Shown here one piece after another: positions 113 to 43,276 of a stretch of 43,386 nucleotides of DNA. A program made the translations under genes and the position numbers. Within the stretch, counting starts at the first letter, position 1. Every line of letters starts with the position of its first letter. The DNA is from a virus. The DNA lies in IMG/VR virus record IMGVR_UViG_3300045988_088603, positions 1 through 43,386 of that record; one strand, given 5' to 3'. The notes under the pieces were generated by a model. The model searched no databases, was not told the DNA's origin, and worked only from the letters and a program-made list of their open reading frames with translations.

Positions 113-1354
113 ATGGCACTGATCAAATGTCCAGAATGCGATCTGCAGGTAAGCGATCACGCAATTGCTTGCCCTCACTGCGGATATCCTATTAATACTA
201 AAGTGGCCAAACAACAACAATCAAAATCTCGTAGAAAAAAACGTCTCCCTAACGGTTTCGGCCAGATCACTAAAATAAAAAACAGCAATCTCCGAAACCC
301 ATACAGAGCTATGGTTACTGTAGGAAAAGACTTCTATGGCAAGCCGATCTGTAAACCTCTAAAACCAAATGCATACTTCAAAACTTACAATGATGCTTAT
401 GCTGCATTGGTTGAATACAATAAAAATCCTTATGATTTAGATGATGATCTGACAGTAGAACAACTTTATGAAAAATGGACCGATGAATACTTCAAGACTT
501 TAACCAATCCATCCAGCATACGAACTATCAAGTCTGCTTGGAACTACTGCTCTGCTATTTACAACATGCGTGCTAAAGATTTAAGACCCCGGCACATTAA
601 AGGCTGCATGGAAGATGGTACATATGTTGTTGATGGTGTAGAGAAAAAAGCATCTTCAAGTACAAAAACAAAAATAAAATCTCTATTTAATCTTATGCTT
701 GACTATGCAAACGAAAATGATCTTGTAGAAAAGAACTATGCTCGAACATTTAAGTTATCTGATGATATTATTAAAGATGTCGAGGAAGAAAAGAAAGATC
801 ATATTGACTTCACAGATGAAGAAATGCAAAAATTGTGGAATAACTTATATGATGTAGACTATGTAGATGTGCTACTAATCCAGTGTTATAGCGGATGGCG
901 CCCACAGGAATTAGGCTTGTTAAAGATGGAGAATGTTGATTTAGAAAATTGGTTTATTACTGGCGGTATGAAAACTGATGCTGGAAAAGATCGTGTGGTT
1001 CCAGTCCATCCAAAGATTCGCAGCTTAATAAAACATCGTTACCAGGAAGCTTTATCTCTTGGAAGCAAATACTTGATTAATTGTACTGATACTAAAACCC
1101 ATCGAAGTAGCTTAAAACTCACATATGATAAATATCGACATAGAGTTGAAAAGATTGTTAACAAGCTGGAATTAAATCCAGAACATCGTGCTCACGATGG
1201 ACGTATCCAATTTGCTACAATGGCAAAAGATGCAAAAGTAAATGAATATGCTCTAAAACGTATCATAGGACATAAAATCGACGACCTCACAGAAAAGACC
1301 TATACAAAGAGAAAAAGAGAATGGCTTATGGAAGAGATTCTAAAGATAAAATAG
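113..1354 (+). CDS. int: Tyrosine-type site-specific integrase with N-terminal zinc ribbon
   Basis: 413-aa ORF. The C-terminal catalytic pattern is R in SGWRPQEL, HxxR in AHDGR, GH in IIGHK and Y in EKTYTKR. The N-terminus has CPEC...CPHC. It is co-oriented with the lysogeny operon across the junction. Confidence 0.9.
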   Translation: MALIKCPECDLQVSDHAIACPHCGYPINTKVAKQQQSKSRRKKRLPNGFGQITKIKNSNLRNPYRAMVTVGKDFYGKPICKPLKPNAYFKTYNDAYAALVEYNKNPYDLDDDLTVEQLYEKWTDEYFKTLTNPSSIRTIKSAWNYCSAIYNMRAKDLRPRHIKGCMEDGTYVVDGVEKKASSSTKTKIKSLFNLMLDYANENDLVEKNYARTFKLSDDIIKDVEEEKKDHIDFTDEEMQKLWNNLYDVDYVDVLLIQCYSGWRPQELGLLKMENVDLENWFITGGMKTDAGKDRVVPVHPKIRSLIKHRYQEALSLGSKYLINCTDTKTHRSSLKLTYDKYRHRVEKIVNKLELNPEHRAHDGRIQFATMAKDAKVNEYALKRIIGHKIDDLTEKTYTKRKREWLMEEILKIK

Positions 1355-22762: not shown

Positions 22763-24028
22763 TCAACTCCATTTTCGTTCACGTCTTACGATCGTGTAAG
22801 CAAAATATCTCACTGCATCCATGCAATGATCATGCTGCTTCACTGGTTTATCTTCTCCACGTTCCAATGCCTTATCATCCCAGATATAAGAGCCGAACTC
22901 TTTGATTGTTTCTTTACAACATTCAGAGAACAGTAATACACCTAGATTTAACAGATTTCCAACAAATCGAATACCATCAAGTACATCATTCTTTGCTTTC
23001 TTAACCTTAAATCCTCGTTTCTTAAGCTCTGCGATAAAGGATGCTGCTGCCGGATCGACAATGATCGATTCAACATTGATTCCTTCCAGGAACTCTTCCA
23101 TGTCATCTGCATACTCTCCGTCTGTCTTCTGCGTAGTCTCATCTCGGCCAGAATAGTAATATTCCTTTGTAGCAACCCACTGTCCCTTGTGATTCTTTTC
23201 CCACAGAAGATATACTGTCGCATTCTGTGTACCATAATCGACACTGACGTATTTACTGCCGGTTGTTGACTGCTTTTCTGATGTGACATGCTTTTCTATA
23301 TTAAACATGTCGTAAATAATTCCCTCAGCTACGGCCCACAGACCTAAGATATAACGCTTATAAAACACTCCGGTATACATTGCTCGATATCGTGCTTTAA
23401 TTCGCTCAGATAAGCTTAAATTGTCGTCCATCGTAAAGTGTAGATAGACAAGTTTCTTTTCATCTGCACGATCAATCCAGTTAGTTTTAAACCAGTGATA
23501 CGGCCCATCTGGGTTACAGTTGAACCAGTATTTAGATCCATCAACAGAACAACGTCCTGTTGCCTGGTCAACAAAAGATTCAGGCATCAATGCAACTTCA
23601 TCAAAAAAGACTCCTGCAAGTGTGATACCCTGTATCAAATCCTGTGATCGCTCATCCTTACCGCCAAAGATGTAAAAAAAATTCTCTTTGCCACCTCTTC
23701 GGATAACAACTAAATTATCAGCTCTATGATCTTCAACGTGATACCCTCGACTCTTAAGCATAAGCTTTAACCAAAAGAGTACGTTTCTCCGGAAAGAACC
23801 GATCGTCTTACCACACATACCAAAATTCTGTCCATTGAACGTTTCCATTGCCCACATTGCAAAGGACAAGCACATAGAAACAGTTTTTCCCGATCGGATA
23901 GCCCCATCGGCTATGATTCCATCTTGATCATATACGGGTGAATTGGGCAGCCACCAGGTAAGTATCTTTTTCTGCTTCTTAGAGAACGGCCGAAACTTAA
24001 AGACAGCTTTCTTTATTCTTCTTCCCAT
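22763..24028 (-). CDS. terL: Terminase large subunit
   Basis: 421 aa with Walker A (GAIRSGKT) and Walker B-like (VFFDEV) motifs and a C-terminal nuclease region. It overlaps terS. Confidence 0.9.
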   Translation of the reverse strand: MGRRIKKAVFKFRPFSKKQKKILTWWLPNSPVYDQDGIIADGAIRSGKTVSMCLSFAMWAMETFNGQNFGMCGKTIGSFRRNVLFWLKLMLKSRGYHVEDHRADNLVVIRRGGKENFFYIFGGKDERSQDLIQGITLAGVFFDEVALMPESFVDQATGRCSVDGSKYWFNCNPDGPYHWFKTNWIDRADEKKLVYLHFTMDDNLSLSERIKARYRAMYTGVFYKRYILGLWAVAEGIIYDMFNIEKHVTSEKQSTTGSKYVSVDYGTQNATVYLLWEKNHKGQWVATKEYYYSGRDETTQKTDGEYADDMEEFLEGINVESIIVDPAAASFIAELKKRGFKVKKAKNDVLDGIRFVGNLLNLGVLLFSECCKETIKEFGSYIWDDKALERGEDKPVKQHDHCMDAVRYFAYTIVRRERKWS

Positions 24029-24891
24029 ACATCTGCCACCTCACCTTTTAAGGCTTCGATGAATCCATCATCTTCTGTCTCTTCTTCGGATGTTCCGGAC
24101 ATGATCGCTGTCTTAGCTCTGATCTGCTCAATCTTAGCTTTCTGTTCAGCTGTAGCAATGTCCATATGGTCTGCAAGCCATTGCAAAGCTTTCATCTTAT
24201 CAACCAGCTTAATACTCGCTCCGTCTTTTCCTTGCTTCACTTCCGTGATCAGTGTTCCATCAACATCTTCAGATTGTTTGAATTTCACAGTATTGACTTC
24301 TTTTTCGAGAACTTCTTTTTCTCCAGTTTCTTTGTTTTCTACCATTACTGGACCAAAAGCACCCATAACTTGAATATTTTCTCGCCCAAACGATACATAA
24401 TCTGTTACATCCGCAAATGCAATGTCCATAAACTTTTGAAAGATATCTTCCTGCTTTAGCAATTCTCTGTTCATATGATTCTGCTTTAGCTGTTCAATCT
24501 CTTTTCTGATCACTTGATTCTTCATAAGCCTGCTTCCTAATACGGCAGCAGATGCATAAGTACATCCTGGATAAGCTTTCATGTAAGCTTTCGTGTAATT
24601 AAACATCCTGGATTGATACAAACAAAAAAGCTGCTGCTGATCGGTAAGTTCATCGTTGATCACGACCTGACTTACATCCTCTGCAACAGCTTCTTTTTTG
24701 TGTGCACCCTTTTTATTTTGTGTGCACCCCTTTTGGATGCATCCTGTCTTTTTGTTCCTCGACCATGCGTATCGTTTCTTCCACGATTTCACAGTGTTCA
24801 TCGAGACTCCATACTTGGCAGCAATGCCTTTATACTTCATTCCGGCCACATAATCGGATTCTGCCAATATGTAGTTTTTTTCTTCATTCAA
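24013..24891 (-). CDS. terS: Terminase small subunit (Terminase_2-like) with N-terminal HTH
   Basis: 292 aa. The HTH is GIAAKYGVSMNTVKSWKKRY. The segment QQLFCLYQSRMFNYTKAYMKAYPG is typical of small terminases. Confidence 0.8.
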   Translation of the reverse strand: MNEEKNYILAESDYVAGMKYKGIAAKYGVSMNTVKSWKKRYAWSRNKKTGCIQKGCTQNKKGAHKKEAVAEDVSQVVINDELTDQQQLFCLYQSRMFNYTKAYMKAYPGCTYASAAVLGSRLMKNQVIRKEIEQLKQNHMNRELLKQEDIFQKFMDIAFADVTDYVSFGRENIQVMGAFGPVMVENKETGEKEVLEKEVNTVKFKQSEDVDGTLITEVKQGKDGASIKLVDKMKALQWLADHMDIATAEQKAKIEQIRAKTAIMSGTSEEETEDDGFIEALKGEVADVWEEE

Positions 24892-24921: not shown

Positions 24922-24995
24922 TGGACCTCCAGGGACTCGAACCCCGGACCGATCGGTTATGAGCCGACTGCTCTGACCAGCTGAGCTAGAGGTCC
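24922..24995 (-). tRNA. tRNA with CAU anticodon (Met, or Ile2 if lysidine-modified)
   Basis: A 74-nt cloverleaf was folded by hand: acceptor GGACCTC/GAGGTCC, D-arm GCTC-AGCTGGTCA-GAGC, anticodon arm GTCGG-CTCATAA-CCGAT, T-arm CGGGG-TTCGAGT-CCCTG, discriminator A. No CCA is encoded. Confidence 0.85.
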
Positions 24996-25017: not shown

Positions 25018-25533
25018 TTATTCTACAAACATCCAATCTTCTGCTAACATATCTGCCTGGCTTGCTAACCATCCCATTTGTACGCCAGACGTGCCGATAA
25101 ACGCAATTGCTTTATTTCCAATATCATTGTGATCACAATTAACGATCGTTCCATCTGCTGCCTTAAATGAAATACATGTTGCAAGCTGAATATACTGGTT
25201 CTTTCCGTTCCAACCTATTCTTTTAACTTTAAGGCCACGTTTCAAATATTTAATAGCATCCCCAAAGCTAAATGTAGCCACTCCACCAAGCACAGGACAG
25301 TTCTCTGGATTTGCCACAATCCATTCATTGGATAAGATGTTAGAAAGTGTGTACTCAACTCTCTGTGTCTCTCTAATATCAAGTAGATCTCCCTGTCCTT
25401 TGTCAGTGTCCTTCGGTCTGCACTGCATCATAACCGTTTCTTTCTCTGCATCCCAGTACCAGTATCCGCCCCAGGATGGAAGTTTTACCCTATGACCTTT
25501 TTTCATTAATTCAAATGCATCTTTAAAATTCAT
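25018..25533 (-). CDS. Tandem DUF2829 (Tad2-like) protein
   Basis: The second half, FSFGDAIKYLKRGLKVKRIGWNGKNQYIQL...GWLASQADMLAEDWMFVE, is a textbook DUF2829 signature. The first half (MNFKDAFELMKKGHRVKLPSWGGYWYW...LSNILSNEWIVA) is a diverged copy. The start at 25533 is preferred over 25596 because a terminator-like hairpin occupies 25561-25590. Confidence 0.75.
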   Translation of the reverse strand: MNFKDAFELMKKGHRVKLPSWGGYWYWDAEKETVMMQCRPKDTDKGQGDLLDIRETQRVEYTLSNILSNEWIVANPENCPVLGGVATFSFGDAIKYLKRGLKVKRIGWNGKNQYIQLATCISFKAADGTIVNCDHNDIGNKAIAFIGTSGVQMGWLASQADMLAEDWMFVE

Positions 25534-25560
25534 ATCTCTTTCCTTTCTCAATTTAGACAT

Positions 25561-25590
25561 AAAAAGACCCGGGGTCCGAAGATCACCCGA
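25561..25590 (-). terminator. GC-rich imperfect hairpin with UUCG loop plus T-run after the 4-TM gene
   Basis: The minus strand reads CGGGTGATC-TTCG-GACCCCG (two bulges) followed by GGTCTTTTT. Confidence 0.45.
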
Positions 25591-25604
25591 GTTCATTCTA
25601 TCTG

Positions 25605-26156
25605 TTATTTTATACTTTTATTCAATTCATCCATTACTTGTTTCTGATCTTCAGACATATCTGAATTTATAGTTTTTCCTTCTTTAATCCCGCTATCATC
25701 AGAAAAAATCAATTCTAGCATATATTTAATGCTTCTATATGTCAGAATCATAAAAAGAAGGAAAAAATAAATCCATAAATAAAAACTATACGTTCTTACT
25801 TGTTTTTGAAAACTTTCATTAAAATACATAAAAACTGTTACGGTTGCACTAAAAAGACCCACCACCACTGTTCCTTTTATATATTTTTGAAACAGTTTAT
25901 TAGTATCTTTTTGAAATACACGCATAACAAATTTAGATTCTTTCTTCATCCCCATGATTACTGGCATTATTGCACCGAAGAACCCAACAATTAAACCTGT
26001 CATGGTTAGTACACTATCTAAAGCATCATATAAATGTTTATCGTTTATATAATTTATTTTACTTCCCCACAACAGCACAACTACAATTAAGCTTAAAACA
26101 TATGGATAACCTCTTTCTAAATAATATGCTATTGGATTCCATCTATTTTTTTTCAT
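25605..26156 (-). CDS. Four-TM membrane protein (183 aa), second gene of the accessory cassette
   Basis: Hydrophobic helices are YPYVLSLIVVVLLWG, LTMTGLIVGFFGAIMPVIMGM, GTVVVGLFSATVTVFMYF and SFYLWIYFFLLFMILTY. The gene is AT-rich and lies 12 nt after the upstream gene. Confidence 0.8.
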   Translation of the reverse strand: MKKNRWNPIAYYLERGYPYVLSLIVVVLLWGSKINYINDKHLYDALDSVLTMTGLIVGFFGAIMPVIMGMKKESKFVMRVFQKDTNKLFQKYIKGTVVVGLFSATVTVFMYFNESFQKQVRTYSFYLWIYFFLLFMILTYRSIKYMLELIFSDDSGIKEGKTINSDMSEDQKQVMDELNKSIK

Positions 26157-26168
26157 TTAACCATCACC

Positions 26169-27080
26169 CTATTCCATTGATAGAAATTTATGTAATTCCT
26201 CTCTTTTTTCAACAAAACAGCGTACCATTCTTTTATATATCACGTCCGTGTCTAGGGTTTCTCGACTTTTTAAAGTAAATTCTATTTTATCGCTTGTTAC
26301 ATTATCAAATAAATCGATAACTTCAGCTGTAGTATCATCATCGTCCTTTACTGTAATTTTAGCCCCACTTACATGGTGACTGTCTTCTCTCACATCATTG
26401 ATTATATTTTGAACAGTATATCTGTCTAAAGTTTCTATGCCAGAACGACCTAAACTTATTGTCACATGTGCGCAAACTCCTCCAACATTTGCACATGACT
26501 TTATTAGTTTACCCAATGGCTTTTTGTCATCTGTATATAATTGATTTAAATTTGCAAATGAAATATCAATCTTTTTATAATAGTCCCTCTCAAAAGCTTT
26601 TTCATCAAGAACAAAACTAATAGGCGACAAAATAAATTTCTCATCCCTATTACCGTTTAAATCAGTTACAATCTCTTGGAATTTTGTAGGTGATATAGAA
26701 AATCTATTCATTTGAAACATTATTATTCCAGTTTCTCTTTCGTAAACAAAAGATACATCTTCTCCTATATACTCGTCATCATCTAAATGTAGCGGCTCTG
26801 CTTCAGTATTTTCCTTGACTTTTGATGGAATATTAGTATCTCTCATTTTCATTAATTTAACATACCATAAACCATAGTCCTTGTTTGTGATCATCTTTTC
26901 AATTCGATATTTTAATCCTGAATGCTCAATTTCTCTTGTTTTAACAATTACTCCTCGTCTATATAAATTAGCTAATAATTCACCTAAATCAAAAACTTTC
27001 GGACTTGACCATTCGCCGTTGTCTATGTAGCTTTTTCTGATCTGATAATAATTAAATTTTATTGTTCTCTTATATTCCAT
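26169..27080 (-). CDS. Soluble 303-aa protein of unknown function, first gene of the accessory cassette
   Basis: Long uninterrupted AT-rich ORF with a GGGAG SD. I recognise no catalytic motif. Confidence 0.8.
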   Translation of the reverse strand: MEYKRTIKFNYYQIRKSYIDNGEWSSPKVFDLGELLANLYRRGVIVKTREIEHSGLKYRIEKMITNKDYGLWYVKLMKMRDTNIPSKVKENTEAEPLHLDDDEYIGEDVSFVYERETGIIMFQMNRFSISPTKFQEIVTDLNGNRDEKFILSPISFVLDEKAFERDYYKKIDISFANLNQLYTDDKKPLGKLIKSCANVGGVCAHVTISLGRSGIETLDRYTVQNIINDVREDSHHVSGAKITVKDDDDTTAEVIDLFDNVTSDKIEFTLKSRETLDTDVIYKRMVRCFVEKREELHKFLSME

Positions 27081-27178
27081 TTTTATCTACTCCCGTGCGA
27101 TCATCATTTTTTTACATTTTAGCACTATTTGGTATCTTATACTACATAATTCGATAAAAAAATTAAACGCACCGTAAT

Positions 27179-27229
27179 ACAGAACATATGTTCTGTTTTT
27201 ATTATATACACATTTTTCAAGATATTCAA
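27179..27229 (-). promoter_or_regulatory. Sigma-A-type promoter plus 18-bp palindromic operator/5' hairpin for the cassette
   Basis: On the minus strand, TTGAAT (27229-27224), a 17-nt spacer and TATAAT (27206-27201) are followed by the perfect palindrome ACAGAACATATGTTCTGT (27196-27179). Confidence 0.6.
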
Positions 27230-27238
27230 TACAAATAC

Positions 27239-27266
27239 ACAAAAAGAACACCGCATTTCTGCGATG
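27239..27266 (-). terminator. Rho-independent terminator after the late-regulator gene
   Basis: On the minus strand, CATCGCA-GAAA-TGCGGTG (one G-U pair) is followed by TTCTTTTTGTG. Confidence 0.6.
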
Positions 27267-27353
27267 CTCAAAAAAAATTTGCACGGGACGATTGATTGGA
27301 CTCTATCCAATTTCCTCAAGTATAACTATAACACACTTTTTTGTTTAATTTGT

Positions 27354-27770
27354 TTAATCTTTTAGATTTTCACTAACTATTTGAGAAATTCTGCCTTTTG
27401 TATACCCCAATTGTTCTCCAACTTCCTGTTGTGTCATGCCATTTATGTAAATGAGTTCAAAAATCTGTCTTGCATTGCTATCAGGAATCAAGCTGATAAA
27501 CTCTTCAATCTCTGTCAGAAGTTCATCCACCTGTTCCTGTCTCTTTCCGTTGATCATCATCTGCCGATAGATCACATCTGTTTGTTTCGGCTCTGACATC
27601 ACAACACTCATGTGCGTTTCGATATAGGGGAACGTGTTCATGGATCCTTTTACTTTTCCAGTAACTGTCGGAATCCTCTCTGCTCTCTCATTCAGTTTCT
27701 CCATTTTGTCTTCCAGCATCTTCTGCTCCCTCTTCAGAGATCGATACTGTCTTAGTTTTTTCTTATCCAT
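27354..27770 (-). CDS. Late-gene transcriptional activator, sigma-70 region-4-like HTH (RinA/ArpU/DUF1492-like)
   Basis: 138 aa. The C-terminus is ARQIFELIYINGMTQQEVGEQLGYTKGRISQIVSENL. The gene sits between the replication and packaging modules. Confidence 0.7.
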   Translation of the reverse strand: MDKKKLRQYRSLKREQKMLEDKMEKLNERAERIPTVTGKVKGSMNTFPYIETHMSVVMSEPKQTDVIYRQMMINGKRQEQVDELLTEIEEFISLIPDSNARQIFELIYINGMTQQEVGEQLGYTKGRISQIVSENLKD

Positions 27771-39895: not shown

Positions 39896-40336
39896 ATGAT
39901 GTGGATGACAGTTGGTGAACGAATACAACTACTAAGAAAGAAAACTGGCATGAGTCAGATAGACTTTGCAACAAAAATAAATGTATCTAAGCAGACTTTG
40001 TATAAATATGAAAATAATCTTATTACTAATATACCGTCTGATAAAATTGAAGCTGTTGCAGATTTGTGTCATGTATCCCCTGCTTATTTGATGGGATGGG
40101 AGGAACCAGAACCTCAATCTTCTACCATACTAAATAAGAAAGATGAAAAAGATATCGCAAAACGATTAGAACAAACTCTTGATCAACTAGAATCCGATCA
40201 AGATGGACTGATGTTCTCCGGAGAACCTTTAGATGATGAAACAAGAGAATTATTAAAAGCGAGTCTCCAAAACAGTATAACCATCGCAAAAATAAATGCT
40301 AAGCAAAAATTCACACCAAAGAAATACAGAAAATAA
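39896..40336 (+). CDS. cI-like repressor (XRE-family HTH, ImmR-like)
   Basis: The HTH is GMSQIDFATKINVSKQTLYKYENN. The probable true start is the ATG at 39905, 9 nt after AAGGAG. An extended -10 (TGTGATAAT) lies at 39866-39874 and the half-site AAGTTAC at 39878-39884. Confidence 0.85.
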   Translation: MMWMTVGERIQLLRKKTGMSQIDFATKINVSKQTLYKYENNLITNIPSDKIEAVADLCHVSPAYLMGWEEPEPQSSTILNKKDEKDIAKRLEQTLDQLESDQDGLMFSGEPLDDETRELLKASLQNSITIAKINAKQKFTPKKYRK

Positions 40337-40349
40337 AGGAAGTGATTCA

Positions 40350-40772
40350 TTGGATATTCGTAAAAAAACAAACTCACTAAAGAAAAGATATGGTACGAAT
40401 AATCCTTTTGACATTGCTAAGTATTTAGGGATAAAGGTTATATTTGAACCATTGGGATCCATTAGTGGATACTACAATAAACAGCTTCGTATGAAGCAAA
40501 TACATATAAATCATGATCTTTCTGATCACGATCAGCTATTTACATGTGCACATGAATTAGGTCATGCAATTATGCATCCTGATGCTAATACTCCATTTTT
40601 AAGAAAACGAACTGGACTTCTTGTAAGTAAAATGGAAATCGAAGCAGATAAGTTTGCAACTGAGCTTCTAATTAATGATGAAATTTTTCTTGAGTTTCAA
40701 GAATTTACTACAGATCAAATCGCACGTGCACTTGGATATAATGAGGAACTGATAAAGTTAAGATTGAAATAA
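40350..40772 (+). CDS. immA: ImmA/IrrE-family zinc metallopeptidase (anti-repressor protease)
   Basis: HExxH lies in CAHELGHAIMH. The proposed TTG start at 40350 follows AAAGGAAGTGA and the cI stop. The ORF-track ATG at 40296 would overlap cI by 41 nt. Confidence 0.8.
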   Translation: MDIRKKTNSLKKRYGTNNPFDIAKYLGIKVIFEPLGSISGYYNKQLRMKQIHINHDLSDHDQLFTCAHELGHAIMHPDANTPFLRKRTGLLVSKMEIEADKFATELLINDEIFLEFQEFTTDQIARALGYNEELIKLRLK

Positions 40773-42150: not shown

Positions 42151-42211
42151 CACCATTTCGGTGATCTCGCCCAAATGGTCCATAAAATATATAACGAAAG
42201 GATGTGAATAT

Positions 42212-43276
42212 ATGGACTTTGAAAAAGAAATTGCTGTCCGTAAGCAGCGTATCTTAAATCAAGCAACTCCTGATACAGCAAATTATACTATTGATAATAT
42301 TGCTGAAGGTGAAATTCTCTTTTATAAAGAGGATGATAAAGATATTAACGTCAGCGTTTTATATAAAGATGATACTTTTTGGATGACACAAAAAGCTATT
42401 TCTGAATTATTTCAAAAAAGCGTTTCCACAATATCACGACATATTTCAAATGTATTTTCCGAAAATGAATTAGATGAAAAAAGCAATTTGCATTTTTTGC
42501 AAATTCCAAATTCTGACAAACCTATAAAAATATATTCTCTAGATATGGTTATTTCTGTAGGTTATCGCACTAATTCTAAACAAGCTACTTTATTCAGGCA
42601 ATGGGCCACTGCTACCTTAAAAGAATTTATTACTAAAGGTTTTGTCATAAATGATGATATGCTTAAAAATGGAAATCCGTTTGGAAAAGATTACTTCGAT
42701 GAACTGTTAGAAAAAATCAAGGAAATTCGTGCAAGTGAGCGACGTTTCTATCAAAAAATCACTGATATATACGCACAATGCAGTTATGATTATGATCCTA
42801 ACAGTGCGATCACAAAAAACTTTTTTAAGAATGTGCAAAATAAGCTTTTGTTTGCAGTAACTGGTCAGACAGCTCCTGAAATTATTCATTCTCGTGCTGA
42901 CAGCCATAAAGATCATATGGGTCTGACTTCTTGGAAGAACTCTCCTGATGGAAAGATACTCAAATCAGATACGATTGTTTCTAAAAACTATTTAAATCAG
43001 ACAGAGCTATCTGATCTTAATGACATTGTAAATATGTATCTTGACTATGCCGAAAACCAAGCAAAAAGAAATAAATTAATGTCTATGCAGGATTGGATTT
43101 CAAAATTAGATGCATTTCTACAATTTAACGAATATGATATTCTACATAATTTTGGTACTGTCACAAGACAAATTGCCAATGCCCTAGCGTATCACGAATA
43201 TGAAAAATACAGAGTTATTCAAGATAAAGAATATGTCTCAGATTTTGACAAAGAAATGCATAAATATCTTAAATAA
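42212..43276 (+). CDS. rhuM: RhuM-family protein
   Basis: WMTQKAISELFQKSVSTISRHISNVF...YSLDMVISVGYRTNSKQATLFRQWAT...IRASERRFYQKITDIY is characteristic of Virulence_RhuM. The ATG at 42212 (SD AAAGGA) is preferred to the GTG at 42161. Confidence 0.8.
   Translation: MDFEKEIAVRKQRILNQATPDTANYTIDNIAEGEILFYKEDDKDINVSVLYKDDTFWMTQKAISELFQKSVSTISRHISNVFSENELDEKSNLHFLQIPNSDKPIKIYSLDMVISVGYRTNSKQATLFRQWATATLKEFITKGFVINDDMLKNGNPFGKDYFDELLEKIKEIRASERRFYQKITDIYAQCSYDYDPNSAITKNFFKNVQNKLLFAVTGQTAPEIIHSRADSHKDHMGLTSWKNSPDGKILKSDTIVSKNYLNQTELSDLNDIVNMYLDYAENQAKRNKLMSMQDWISKLDAFLQFNEYDILHNFGTVTRQIANALAYHEYEKYRVIQDKEYVSDFDKEMHKYLK

Follow-up and report, generated by a model that had tools for sequence, protein, structure and literature searches.

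A DUF6731 protein and its four-helix membrane partner as a candidate LexA-controlled, Rex-like module in a cargo hotspot of temperate Bacillota phages

What does an AT-rich pair of genes do between the regulator and terminase genes of a temperate phage? The question arises in the IMG/VR virus record IMGVR_UViG_3300045988_088603, of which positions 1 to 43,386 were analysed (the window, 43,386 nt), where the gene for a 303-aa soluble protein (gene 1) is followed by one for a 183-aa protein with four transmembrane (TM) helices (gene 2). An initial annotation, made from the sequence without database searches, had described two co-oriented open reading frames (ORFs) in an AT-rich segment as a candidate defence system. 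Both ORFs are indeed there, 12 nt apart, and the GC content is 0.28-0.32 over 25501-27500 against 0.42-0.48 in the flanks; when the 2.8-kb region was compared by megablast with 50,697 phage records, no match was obtained. Our best reading of this cassette is that it encodes a module of the Rex type wired to the SOS response, with a role in defence that is suggested by analogy with RexA-RexB of phage lambda.

The soluble protein, in which the initial annotation had found no assignable motif and which it thought might belong to a new family, falls in an existing one. It is a full-length member of Pfam DUF6731 (PF20505; E 8e-56, 190.1 bits against a cut-off of 27, residues 4-292 of 303), a family that had been named among those worth comparing, and PF20505 is present in all 83 of 83 word-indexed homologues. 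Its PHROGs family is phrog_10865, and the PADLOC and NCBIfam profiles gave no match to it. An exhaustive search of representative sequences found 1,714 DUF6731 clusters (E <= 1e-3, clusters at 50% identity); among the representative matches listed, the DUF6731 proteins stand alone and are mostly about 300 aa long, with a few shorter fragments.

When the structure of the gene 1 protein was predicted with AlphaFold2 (AF2; 48 homologues), the model was confident (pLDDT 85.7), and the Foldseek search that the initial annotation had proposed ranked lambda RexA first in the PDB (8twq, chain B; E 2.5e-7, probability 1.0). The next matches were CENP-N/CHL4 chains, CHL4 being the yeast CENP-N, and E. 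coli RdgC (2owl, E 0.015), and those in BFVD include entries annotated as RdgC or 'recombination-associated protein'. The model has an N-terminal sheet with helices (1-142), a middle domain of four strands and three helices (147-245), and two C-terminal strands with a long helix, which together make a split antiparallel-sheet fold of the RexA type. This order of secondary structure agrees with the RexA architecture described by Adams 2024 (PMC11077077), a split globular domain interrupted by a four-strand dimerisation domain, and the same account lists RdgC and the kinetochore subunits IML3/CHL4 as the structural relatives of RexA.

A relation to RexA can also be followed, more faintly, in profile alignments. 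With the DUF6731 alignment deepened by diverse members from the exhaustive search, hhalign matched it to a 25-sequence RexA alignment over 251 colinear columns (DUF6731 residues 8-301 against RexA 2-271; score 34.4, P 3.4e-4) at a probability of 37.6%, below the usual 90% standard, and the identity of the DUF6731 protein to RexA is about 15%. As controls we used the reversed alignment and 80 column- or block-shuffled ones, none of which (0 of 81) reached that score; their maximum was 25.8, over at most 63 columns. The shallow alignment, compared with a single RexA, a single pFR81 sequence (see below) and the RexA alignment, gave probabilities of 3.7-6%, with the RexA comparison colinear though weak. 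Three conserved blocks are in register between the families, FxKxxD..K[VI], LxDDEx[IL]G and an xPI segment at the RexA hinge, and the [KR]xK-D[DE] strand of DUF6731 coincides with R219 and K221 of RexA, mutation of which abolishes DNA binding (PMC11077077). Based on the Foldseek rank, the colinear alignment with its controls and the blocks in register, we accept a RexA-like fold and regard common ancestry of DUF6731 and RexA as probable. The model thus points with good confidence to a RexA/RdgC/CENP-N-type fold within a Rex-like architecture, and by analogy we propose that gene 1 encodes a DNA-binding sensor or regulator subunit. A relation to Cas2, the sole match of a DUF6731 profile search against PDB sequences, was dropped at its chance-level E of 0.054.

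For the partner protein, the four TM helices claimed in the initial annotation were recovered as four hydrophobic segments in the family-averaged hydropathy (at about residues 17-31, 48-68, 96-112 and 124-146). By the positive-inside rule the predicted topology is N-in/C-in, with a basic 31-residue TM2-TM3 loop in the cytoplasm and a charged C-terminal tail. We then asked how regularly the two genes occur together, counting the loci with enough downstream DNA. A multi-TM ORF of 156-196 aa lies at -35 to +23 nt after the DUF6731 gene in 22 of 22 such genome loci, which span Lachnospiraceae, Clostridia, the Bacillus group, Caloramator, Syntrophomonas, Veillonella, Levilactobacillus, Ruminococcus and Oscillospiraceae, and the arrangement was met again in phages, namely in three more families and in two cultured ones, Clostridium phiCp-A and Aeribacillus AP45. 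In total, the soluble plus four-TM pairing first described for this one cassette holds in 28 of 28 informative loci across Bacillota, the 4-TM gene being directly downstream each time. The downstream proteins form one sequence family, and the pairwise identities of the two proteins correlate (r = 0.87; Mantel 0/2000). We propose that gene 2 encodes a membrane effector or anchor.

The only database similarity of the partner is to the PADLOC profile PDC-M18B (E 5.3e-4, 17.5 bits), which matches 5 of 23 members of the TM family at E <= 0.01 (best 5.5e-6); a word-indexed homologue search with the TM protein returned just four close relatives. PDC-M18 goes back to system 4 in the hotspot of P4 satellites (PMC11754643), and this system corresponds to construct pFR81, 'RexA + 4TM', in Rousset et al. 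2022 (PMC9122126). The pFR81 proteins match PDC-M18A at 2.3e-34 and PDC-M18B at 3.3e-16, the latter value showing how a genuine pFR81 4-TM protein scores. Because PDC-M18 is 'RexA + 4TM', the PDC-M18B match provides an independent, weak sequence link between the partner family and a RexA-associated 4-TM protein.

Several pairs lie in cultured phages, where their genes are annotated as hypothetical or left unannotated. In the Clostridium perfringens phage phiCp-A (MW478289.1 24429-25894, L090) the pair is found between the endolysin and a resolvase, in Aeribacillus phage AP45 (KX965989.1 23703-25189, L091) it is directly before terS, and two Listeria phages (OR846730.1 and OR848098.1) likewise carry genuine members of both families. 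In several phage backbones that are unrelated, the place of the pair is again just before terS. In a Hungatella-type prophage (L038/L039:6191-9258), HicA/HicB are upstream of the pair and YjcQ-family and HTH genes downstream, followed by terS, so that this slot gathers several accessory modules.

To see whether the cassette belongs to the phage backbone, we used the regulator gene as an anchor and compared 36 viral contigs in which its product is at least 84% identical. Only 2 of these 36 relatives carry the cassette, and the other 34 have different cargo at the same place, including some whose TerS is 99-100% identical. An identical cassette is also found on many phage contigs of about 40 kb in which the replication module is conserved and the packaging and head modules differ. 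The variable interval between the regulator and terS measures 1.0-3.6 kb, with cargo junctions at about 27092-27262 and 25541-25597; on its right side, the tRNA-Met block is 92-95% identical in all 36 relatives, even where terS is only 28% identical. Given its presence in 2 of 36 relatives, its conserved junctions and its deviating GC content, the cassette is genuine accessory cargo, a moron in a hotspot, as had been claimed from its position.

The initial annotation had further regarded the cassette as an independent transcription unit, a view that holds in part. The pair has separate transcription signals, but the terminators are shared with phages that carry other cargo, and the promoter is partly so. 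The left hairpin with its T-run, said to end the regulator transcript, is unusually stable (-15.2 kcal/mol, z = -5.07, 0 of 200 shuffles as stable) and is kept in the 36 related phages (L042-L077) with a compensatory change (CGCAG..GCG versus CGTAG..ACG, C>T/G>A); L065-L067 have a different hairpin at this position. Its function as a terminator is supported by this covariation. The right-hand UUCG hairpin is also present as annotated. Its fold is not distinctive (-13.4 kcal/mol, z = -1.1), and it is supported instead by the conservation of the surrounding block, which in relatives stands behind different cargo, namely the TM gene of type B and the YfbU gene (91-96% identity). The -35 side of the promoter, down to about 27241-27262, is common to all relatives, and backbone homology to the phages with other cargo ends at about 27186-27262; about half of the relatives share the promoter through its -10, and the whole promoter and leader are common to type B only. 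Phages with other cargo have different promoter hexamers, with a -10 of the TGTGATATAAT type, and for most of that cargo this extended -10 promoter directly follows the conserved terminator. We therefore rejected the view of promoter and terminators as mobile parts of the cassette, since both terminators and the -35 side belong to the hotspot scaffold.

How the pair is expressed bears directly on what it may do. The predicted promoter P1 has the hexamers and spacing reported in the initial annotation, although such a match alone is weak evidence, since this AT-rich stretch holds 24 promoter-like matches against 11.8 expected. More informative is the perfect 18-bp palindrome at the predicted 5' end, which was also correctly noted. 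Its core GAACATATGTTC (27182-27193) equals the consensus of the Gram-positive LexA (Cheo/SOS) box of B. subtilis and Clostridium; the LexA operator in B. subtilis and clostridia is GAAC-N4-GTT[CT] (PMC4234289). The box starts 4 nt after the -10 hexamer and thereby overlaps the predicted transcription start. GAAC-N4-GTTY occurs once in the window, where 0.5 is expected, so the single site could be due to chance, and a scan of the window found no LexA box near the ImmR/ImmA switch.

However, the box is not confined to this phage. We found GAAC(A/G)T(A/T)TGTTC-type boxes at most 400 nt upstream in 13 of 30 homologous operons, against a background of 0.038 expected per locus (420 nt). The binomial P is about 1e-6 to 3e-9, and about 1e-6 even with related loci collapsed. 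The proteins of these operons are 25-40% identical to those of the window and their DNA is unalignable; in most such loci the box is placed between TTGACA-like (-35) and TATAAT-like (-10) hexamers, and in phiCp-A the box GAACATATGTTT is 226 nt upstream of the pair. From this recurrence in divergent operons we conclude that predicted LexA control is a family trait of DUF6731 operons, and we consider it likely for the operon of the window. The presence of the box speaks against expression that is simply constitutive during lysogeny. Downstream of the box is a possible second promoter (Table 1), and a leader motif almost the same as this one, TGGTAAAATGTAAAAAATGAT, is found in L061 before the type C cassette, which is unrelated.

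Table 1. Positions of the cassette, its signals and other features of the window, and of hotspot cargo in related loci (L-numbers).
Feature	Position	Strand	Remarks
Gene 1, soluble protein, DUF6731	26169..27080	-	303 aa
Gene 2, 4-TM membrane protein	25605..26156	-	183 aa
Promoter P1 (putative)	27201..27229	-	sigma-A type, TTGAAT-17 nt-TATAAT; 10/12 consensus positions
Possible second promoter (predicted)	27116..27124	-	extended -10 TGCTAAAAT; ~36 nt upstream of gene 1 start codon
Perfect 18-bp palindrome	27179..27196	.	ACAGAACATATGTTCTGT; LexA-box core inside
Intrinsic terminator hairpin	27246..27269	-	T-run to ~27239; ends regulator transcript; left-hand scaffold of hotspot
Boundary block	25541..25597	-	GC-rich UUCG hairpin + T-run (25561-25590); probable terminator, right-hand cargo junction
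Regulator gene	27354..27770	-	138 aa; sigma-70 region 4 / ECF-like
Tad2-like gene (anti-Thoeris family)	25018..25596	-	PF11195 E 1.7e-24, two matched stretches
Phage tRNA-Met	24922..24995	-	anticodon CAT; right anchor with terS (24013-24891)
Tyrosine integrase	113-1354	+	N-terminal zinc ribbon
ImmR-like (HTH_3) + ImmA lysogeny module	39896-40772	+	ImmA an IrrE-type M78 peptidase
RhuM-family gene	42161-43276	+	right end of window
Type B pair	L045:5692-7144, L047, L060, L076		~300 aa soluble + ~190 aa multi-TM; phrog_4672 + phrog_4613
Type C pair	L061:5619-7210, L062-L064, L071, L073		~300 aa soluble + ~190 aa multi-TM; no family
Other cargo	L044:5452-7846; L075:5174-6115; L055:5603-6136; L058:5546-6301; L060:7223-7672

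We favour, with modest confidence, the reading of the cassette as an accessory module with two components, Rex-like in kind, which a temperate Bacillota phage carries under the control of host LexA; for a phage-exclusion function of the pair, which would follow from the analogy with Rex, we judge the chances to be even. In an undamaged lysogen LexA would hold P1 low, and the weak second promoter may supply a basal level. Once RecA is activated, LexA would be removed and both proteins made; damage to DNA, induction of a prophage or single-stranded DNA generated by an incoming phage could each be the trigger. As in lambda Rex, the soluble dimer would then bind DNA or replication/recombination intermediates and contact its membrane partner, which in turn would perturb membrane energetics and stop both the cell and competing phages from growing, as in exclusion or abortive infection. 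One may extend this, much more tentatively and with a probability we consider rather low, to a large Bacillota-wide Rex-like branch (about 1,700 clusters) formed by DUF6731 and its 4-TM partner, directly wired to SOS and serving mainly competition between phages at induction, not standing defence. Cleavage of LexA caused by DNA damage, an infecting phage or the induction of a co-resident prophage would here arm a RexA-fold sensor and a membrane effector, and siblings in the same slot (such as type B with its LexA-box leader) would be further branches of the superfamily.

A number of observations weigh against a Rex-like module. Lambda RexA itself scores 1e-97 / 9e-110 in the profile libraries used, but the RexA family profile in Pfam (PF15969) gives no match to the gene 1 protein at E <= 1, PHROGs assigns it to phrog_10865 and not to phrog_12654, and the PADLOC RexA profile has no match among 48 DUF6731 members. 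The hhalign probability to RexA is just 38%, and the global TM-score of the model against crystal RexA is only 0.34-0.37, a low value that is plausibly to be expected because the model may be in the open state while the RexA crystal is closed (Adams 2024 finds the crystal closed and the AlphaFold prediction open; PMC11077077). With a median pI of 5.9 the family is slightly acidic, and DNA binding is therefore not to be taken for granted. For the TM partner, RexB profiles (PF15968, PADLOC and PHROGs) gave no match, an hhalign comparison of the family with a 5-sequence RexB alignment was not significant (P 0.065 over 39 columns), and the AF2 model failed (pLDDT 46). Unlike lambda rexAB, the pair is located between the late regulator and terS, about 13 kb from ImmR/ImmA, and not beside the repressor. 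Under the predicted LexA repression the pair would be expressed at a low level as long as the lysogen is healthy, an unusual property in a standing defence. Our literature search found no paper mentioning DUF6731 or PF20505 and no experiment on any protein of the family; Rousset et al. 2022, who cloned PDC-M18 (pFR81), do not name it among their seven protective systems (PMC9122126); and Adams 2024 doubts exclusion as the true function of Rex even in lambda (PMC11077077).

Some of these points make a modulator of the phage switch the main rival, namely the SOS gating, the acidic family, the absence of PDC-M18 from the protective systems and a role of RexA that is independent of RexB. The pair could modulate the lysis-lysogeny or induction decision through an SOS-induced DNA-binding protein of the RexA/RdgC kind that its membrane partner tethers or tunes, either by reinforcing lytic commitment as RexA does at CI-Cro or by damping RecA as RdgC would, with exclusion as a side-effect; RdgC reportedly inhibits RecA, a finding attributed to Drees et al. 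in 2006. The RexA/RdgC fold suits such a role, and through the LexA box expression would depend on the same signal by which prophages are induced. RexA was described as stabilising the lytic state without RexB, and exclusion as perhaps incidental (Adams 2024, PMC11077077). Yet the gene is dispensable in 34 of the 36 close relatives with the same regulator, the membrane protein always travels along, the pair is surrounded by anti-defence and moron cargo, a long way from the ImmR/ImmA switch, and the alternative soluble plus TM pairs in the slot look like arms-race turnover. We thus hold a switch modulator, or an RdgC-like RecA modulator, to be the less probable explanation by a clear distance from an even chance, and the remaining ones to be less likely again. 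An SOS-induced membrane toxin serving addiction or persistence with TisB-like logic, in which a 4-TM depolarising toxin is held by a soluble regulator or antitoxin without phage sensing, would account for the LexA box and for a small multi-TM protein with a basic loop, and the pair adjoins HicAB in the Hungatella-type prophage. We consider this improbable, as a conserved RexA-fold partner of 300 aa is far larger than typical antitoxins, the strict co-evolution and soluble-first order resemble sensor-effector systems, and no toxin-antitoxin family was matched in the profile libraries.

Two last alternatives are very improbable in our view. A core function in the lytic cycle, such as lysis timing, DNA packaging or an injection accessory, could explain why the position before terS recurs in several unrelated backbones, but the cassette is missing from 34 of 36 near-identical backbones (some, as noted, with 99-100% identical TerS), the phiCp-A pair lies between endolysin and resolvase instead, and the holin and endolysin of the window are encoded elsewhere. 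The other is Kiwa, to which the initial annotation had likened the pair by size and topology. On a Kiwa-like reading, the 4-TM protein as sensor and a DNA-binding effector would assemble into a membrane supercomplex; attachment of a phage would be sensed by it, and replication and late transcription blocked. The two share the layout of a 4-TM and a soluble protein of about 300 aa, of similar sizes, as cargo of mobile elements, and KwaB binds DNA non-specifically while tethered to KwaA (PMC11785009), which is alike in functional outline. However, KwaA, KwaB and DUF4868 profiles matched neither the window proteins nor 48 + 23 members of their families, and hhalign against one KwaA and one KwaB sequence gave nothing significant. 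In Kiwa, kwaA (4-TM) precedes kwaB, whereas here the soluble protein comes first, and the fold of gene 1 differs from that of KwaB, a Rossmann-like domain with a parallel sheet joined to DUF4868 (PMC11785009). Kiwa membership was rejected on these grounds, and the comparison was not sustained. Absence of Kiwa from the Foldseek list cannot be used as evidence, since E. coli KwaB (pFR79, Rousset 2022) had no match among the PDB sequences searched; a literature search found no paper linking KwaB to RdgC.

By gene content, in library scans of its proteins, the window is a complete temperate phage. Besides the features in Table 1 it encodes a structural and packaging block, a CHAP endolysin and holin, and a replication block with DNA polymerase A, a VapE-like primase/helicase and an SNF2 helicase. 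The 138-aa regulator is the presumed late-gene activator, and the switch is of the ImmR/ImmA kind rather than a LexA-like S24 repressor.

The cargo found in the hotspot is diverse and comprises Tad2-like, YfbU-domain and DUF2806 proteins, N-terminally anchored proteins of 235-251 aa (coiled-coil-like), a 447 + 367-aa pair without family matches, and the pairs of types B and C; a crAss001_48-like protein is also seen. PADLOC gave no match to the cargo proteins of L044, L075, L055, L058 and L060. In the window, the Tad2-like gene, a candidate anti-defence gene, is directly downstream of the candidate exclusion pair. Its true start is probably the ATG at 25533, and it is a separate piece of cargo that occurs in only some relatives and is missing in L029 though the pair is there. 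The type B and C pairs have no Pfam or PADLOC match, and as single sequences their soluble proteins show no significant similarity to the DUF6731 and RexA profiles. Type B shares the promoter, LexA box and 5' leader of the window down to 27092, and between its TM protein and the partner family there is a weak similarity (hhalign P 0.0013). The leader of type C is its own, but a TG(C/G)TAAAATGTAAAAAA motif is common to it and the window. Types B and C could represent additional branches of the Rex-like kind.

Rex is the oldest known phage-exclusion system, its mechanism and true role are disputed, and studies of it have so far been confined to lambda and a few actinophages. The present analysis gives DUF6731 a fold and a genomic context. 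If the pair is Rex-like, an uncharacterised Pfam family of about 1,700 clusters gains a testable function, and systems of the Rex type would reach Bacillota, including phages of gut Lachnospiraceae, Clostridium, Listeria and the Bacillus group. SOS gating would then be a new regulatory logic that bears on whether Rex is a defence or a switch modulator, and the cultured phages phiCp-A, AP45 and Listeria LM 4-11-1 could serve as experimental handles. The compact hotspot mapped here, from the regulator and terminator to the tRNA-Met and terS, holds other occupants, among them the type B and C pairs and the Tad2-like gene, that are candidates for the discovery of defence and counter-defence.

Among known systems, RdgC has the same fold class, and an SOS link is plausible for it too; unlike the window pair, it is encoded on the chromosome by itself and has no partner in the membrane, and its structural match is much weaker than that of RexA. 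PDC-M18, the nearest candidate in the catalogues, resembles the pair in combining a soluble protein labelled RexA with a 4-TM protein of about 175 aa, carried as swappable cargo in a hotspot of mobile elements (E. coli P4-like satellites). Its soluble protein is longer, at 386 aa against 303 aa, none of 48 DUF6731 members matches PDC-M18A at E <= 0.1, and hhalign between DUF6731 and the pFR81 soluble protein was not significant. That protein (Table S2, PMC9122126) matches phrog_24371 and, despite its 2022 label as RexA, has no current Pfam-A match at E <= 0.01; the same study has a second construct, pFR86, described as 'RexAB-like'. The Rex-like pairs of temperate actinobacteriophages (Sbash gp30/gp31, CarolAnn, Butters and Toast) likewise join a sequence-divergent soluble RexA-like protein to a membrane RexB-like one, and some are away from, or inverted to, the repressor (PMC11077077). 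According to the genetic studies cited there, those of Sbash, CarolAnn and Butters exclude other phages, and the purified homologues from Sbash, CarolAnn and Toast dimerise and bind DNA. Their hosts are of another phylum, we liken them by description alone, and the sections of that paper drawn on here mention no SOS-box control.

The comparison with lambda itself is the closest. The partner, at 183 aa with a charged C-terminal tail, differs from RexB (144 aa), the hosts are Bacillota instead of Enterobacteria, and RexA homologues adjoin S24 repressor genes. Lambda rexAB is co-transcribed with the repressor from PRM, whereas the pair of the window has its own terminator and promoter and is apparently repressed by LexA. 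What the two have in common is a two-gene prophage operon in which a soluble protein of about 280-300 aa is followed by a small 4-TM protein with N-in/C-in topology and a basic TM2-TM3 loop, and, in the predicted structure of gene 1, the RexA combination of a split globular and a dimerisation domain with the same structural neighbours, RdgC and CENP-N/CHL4.

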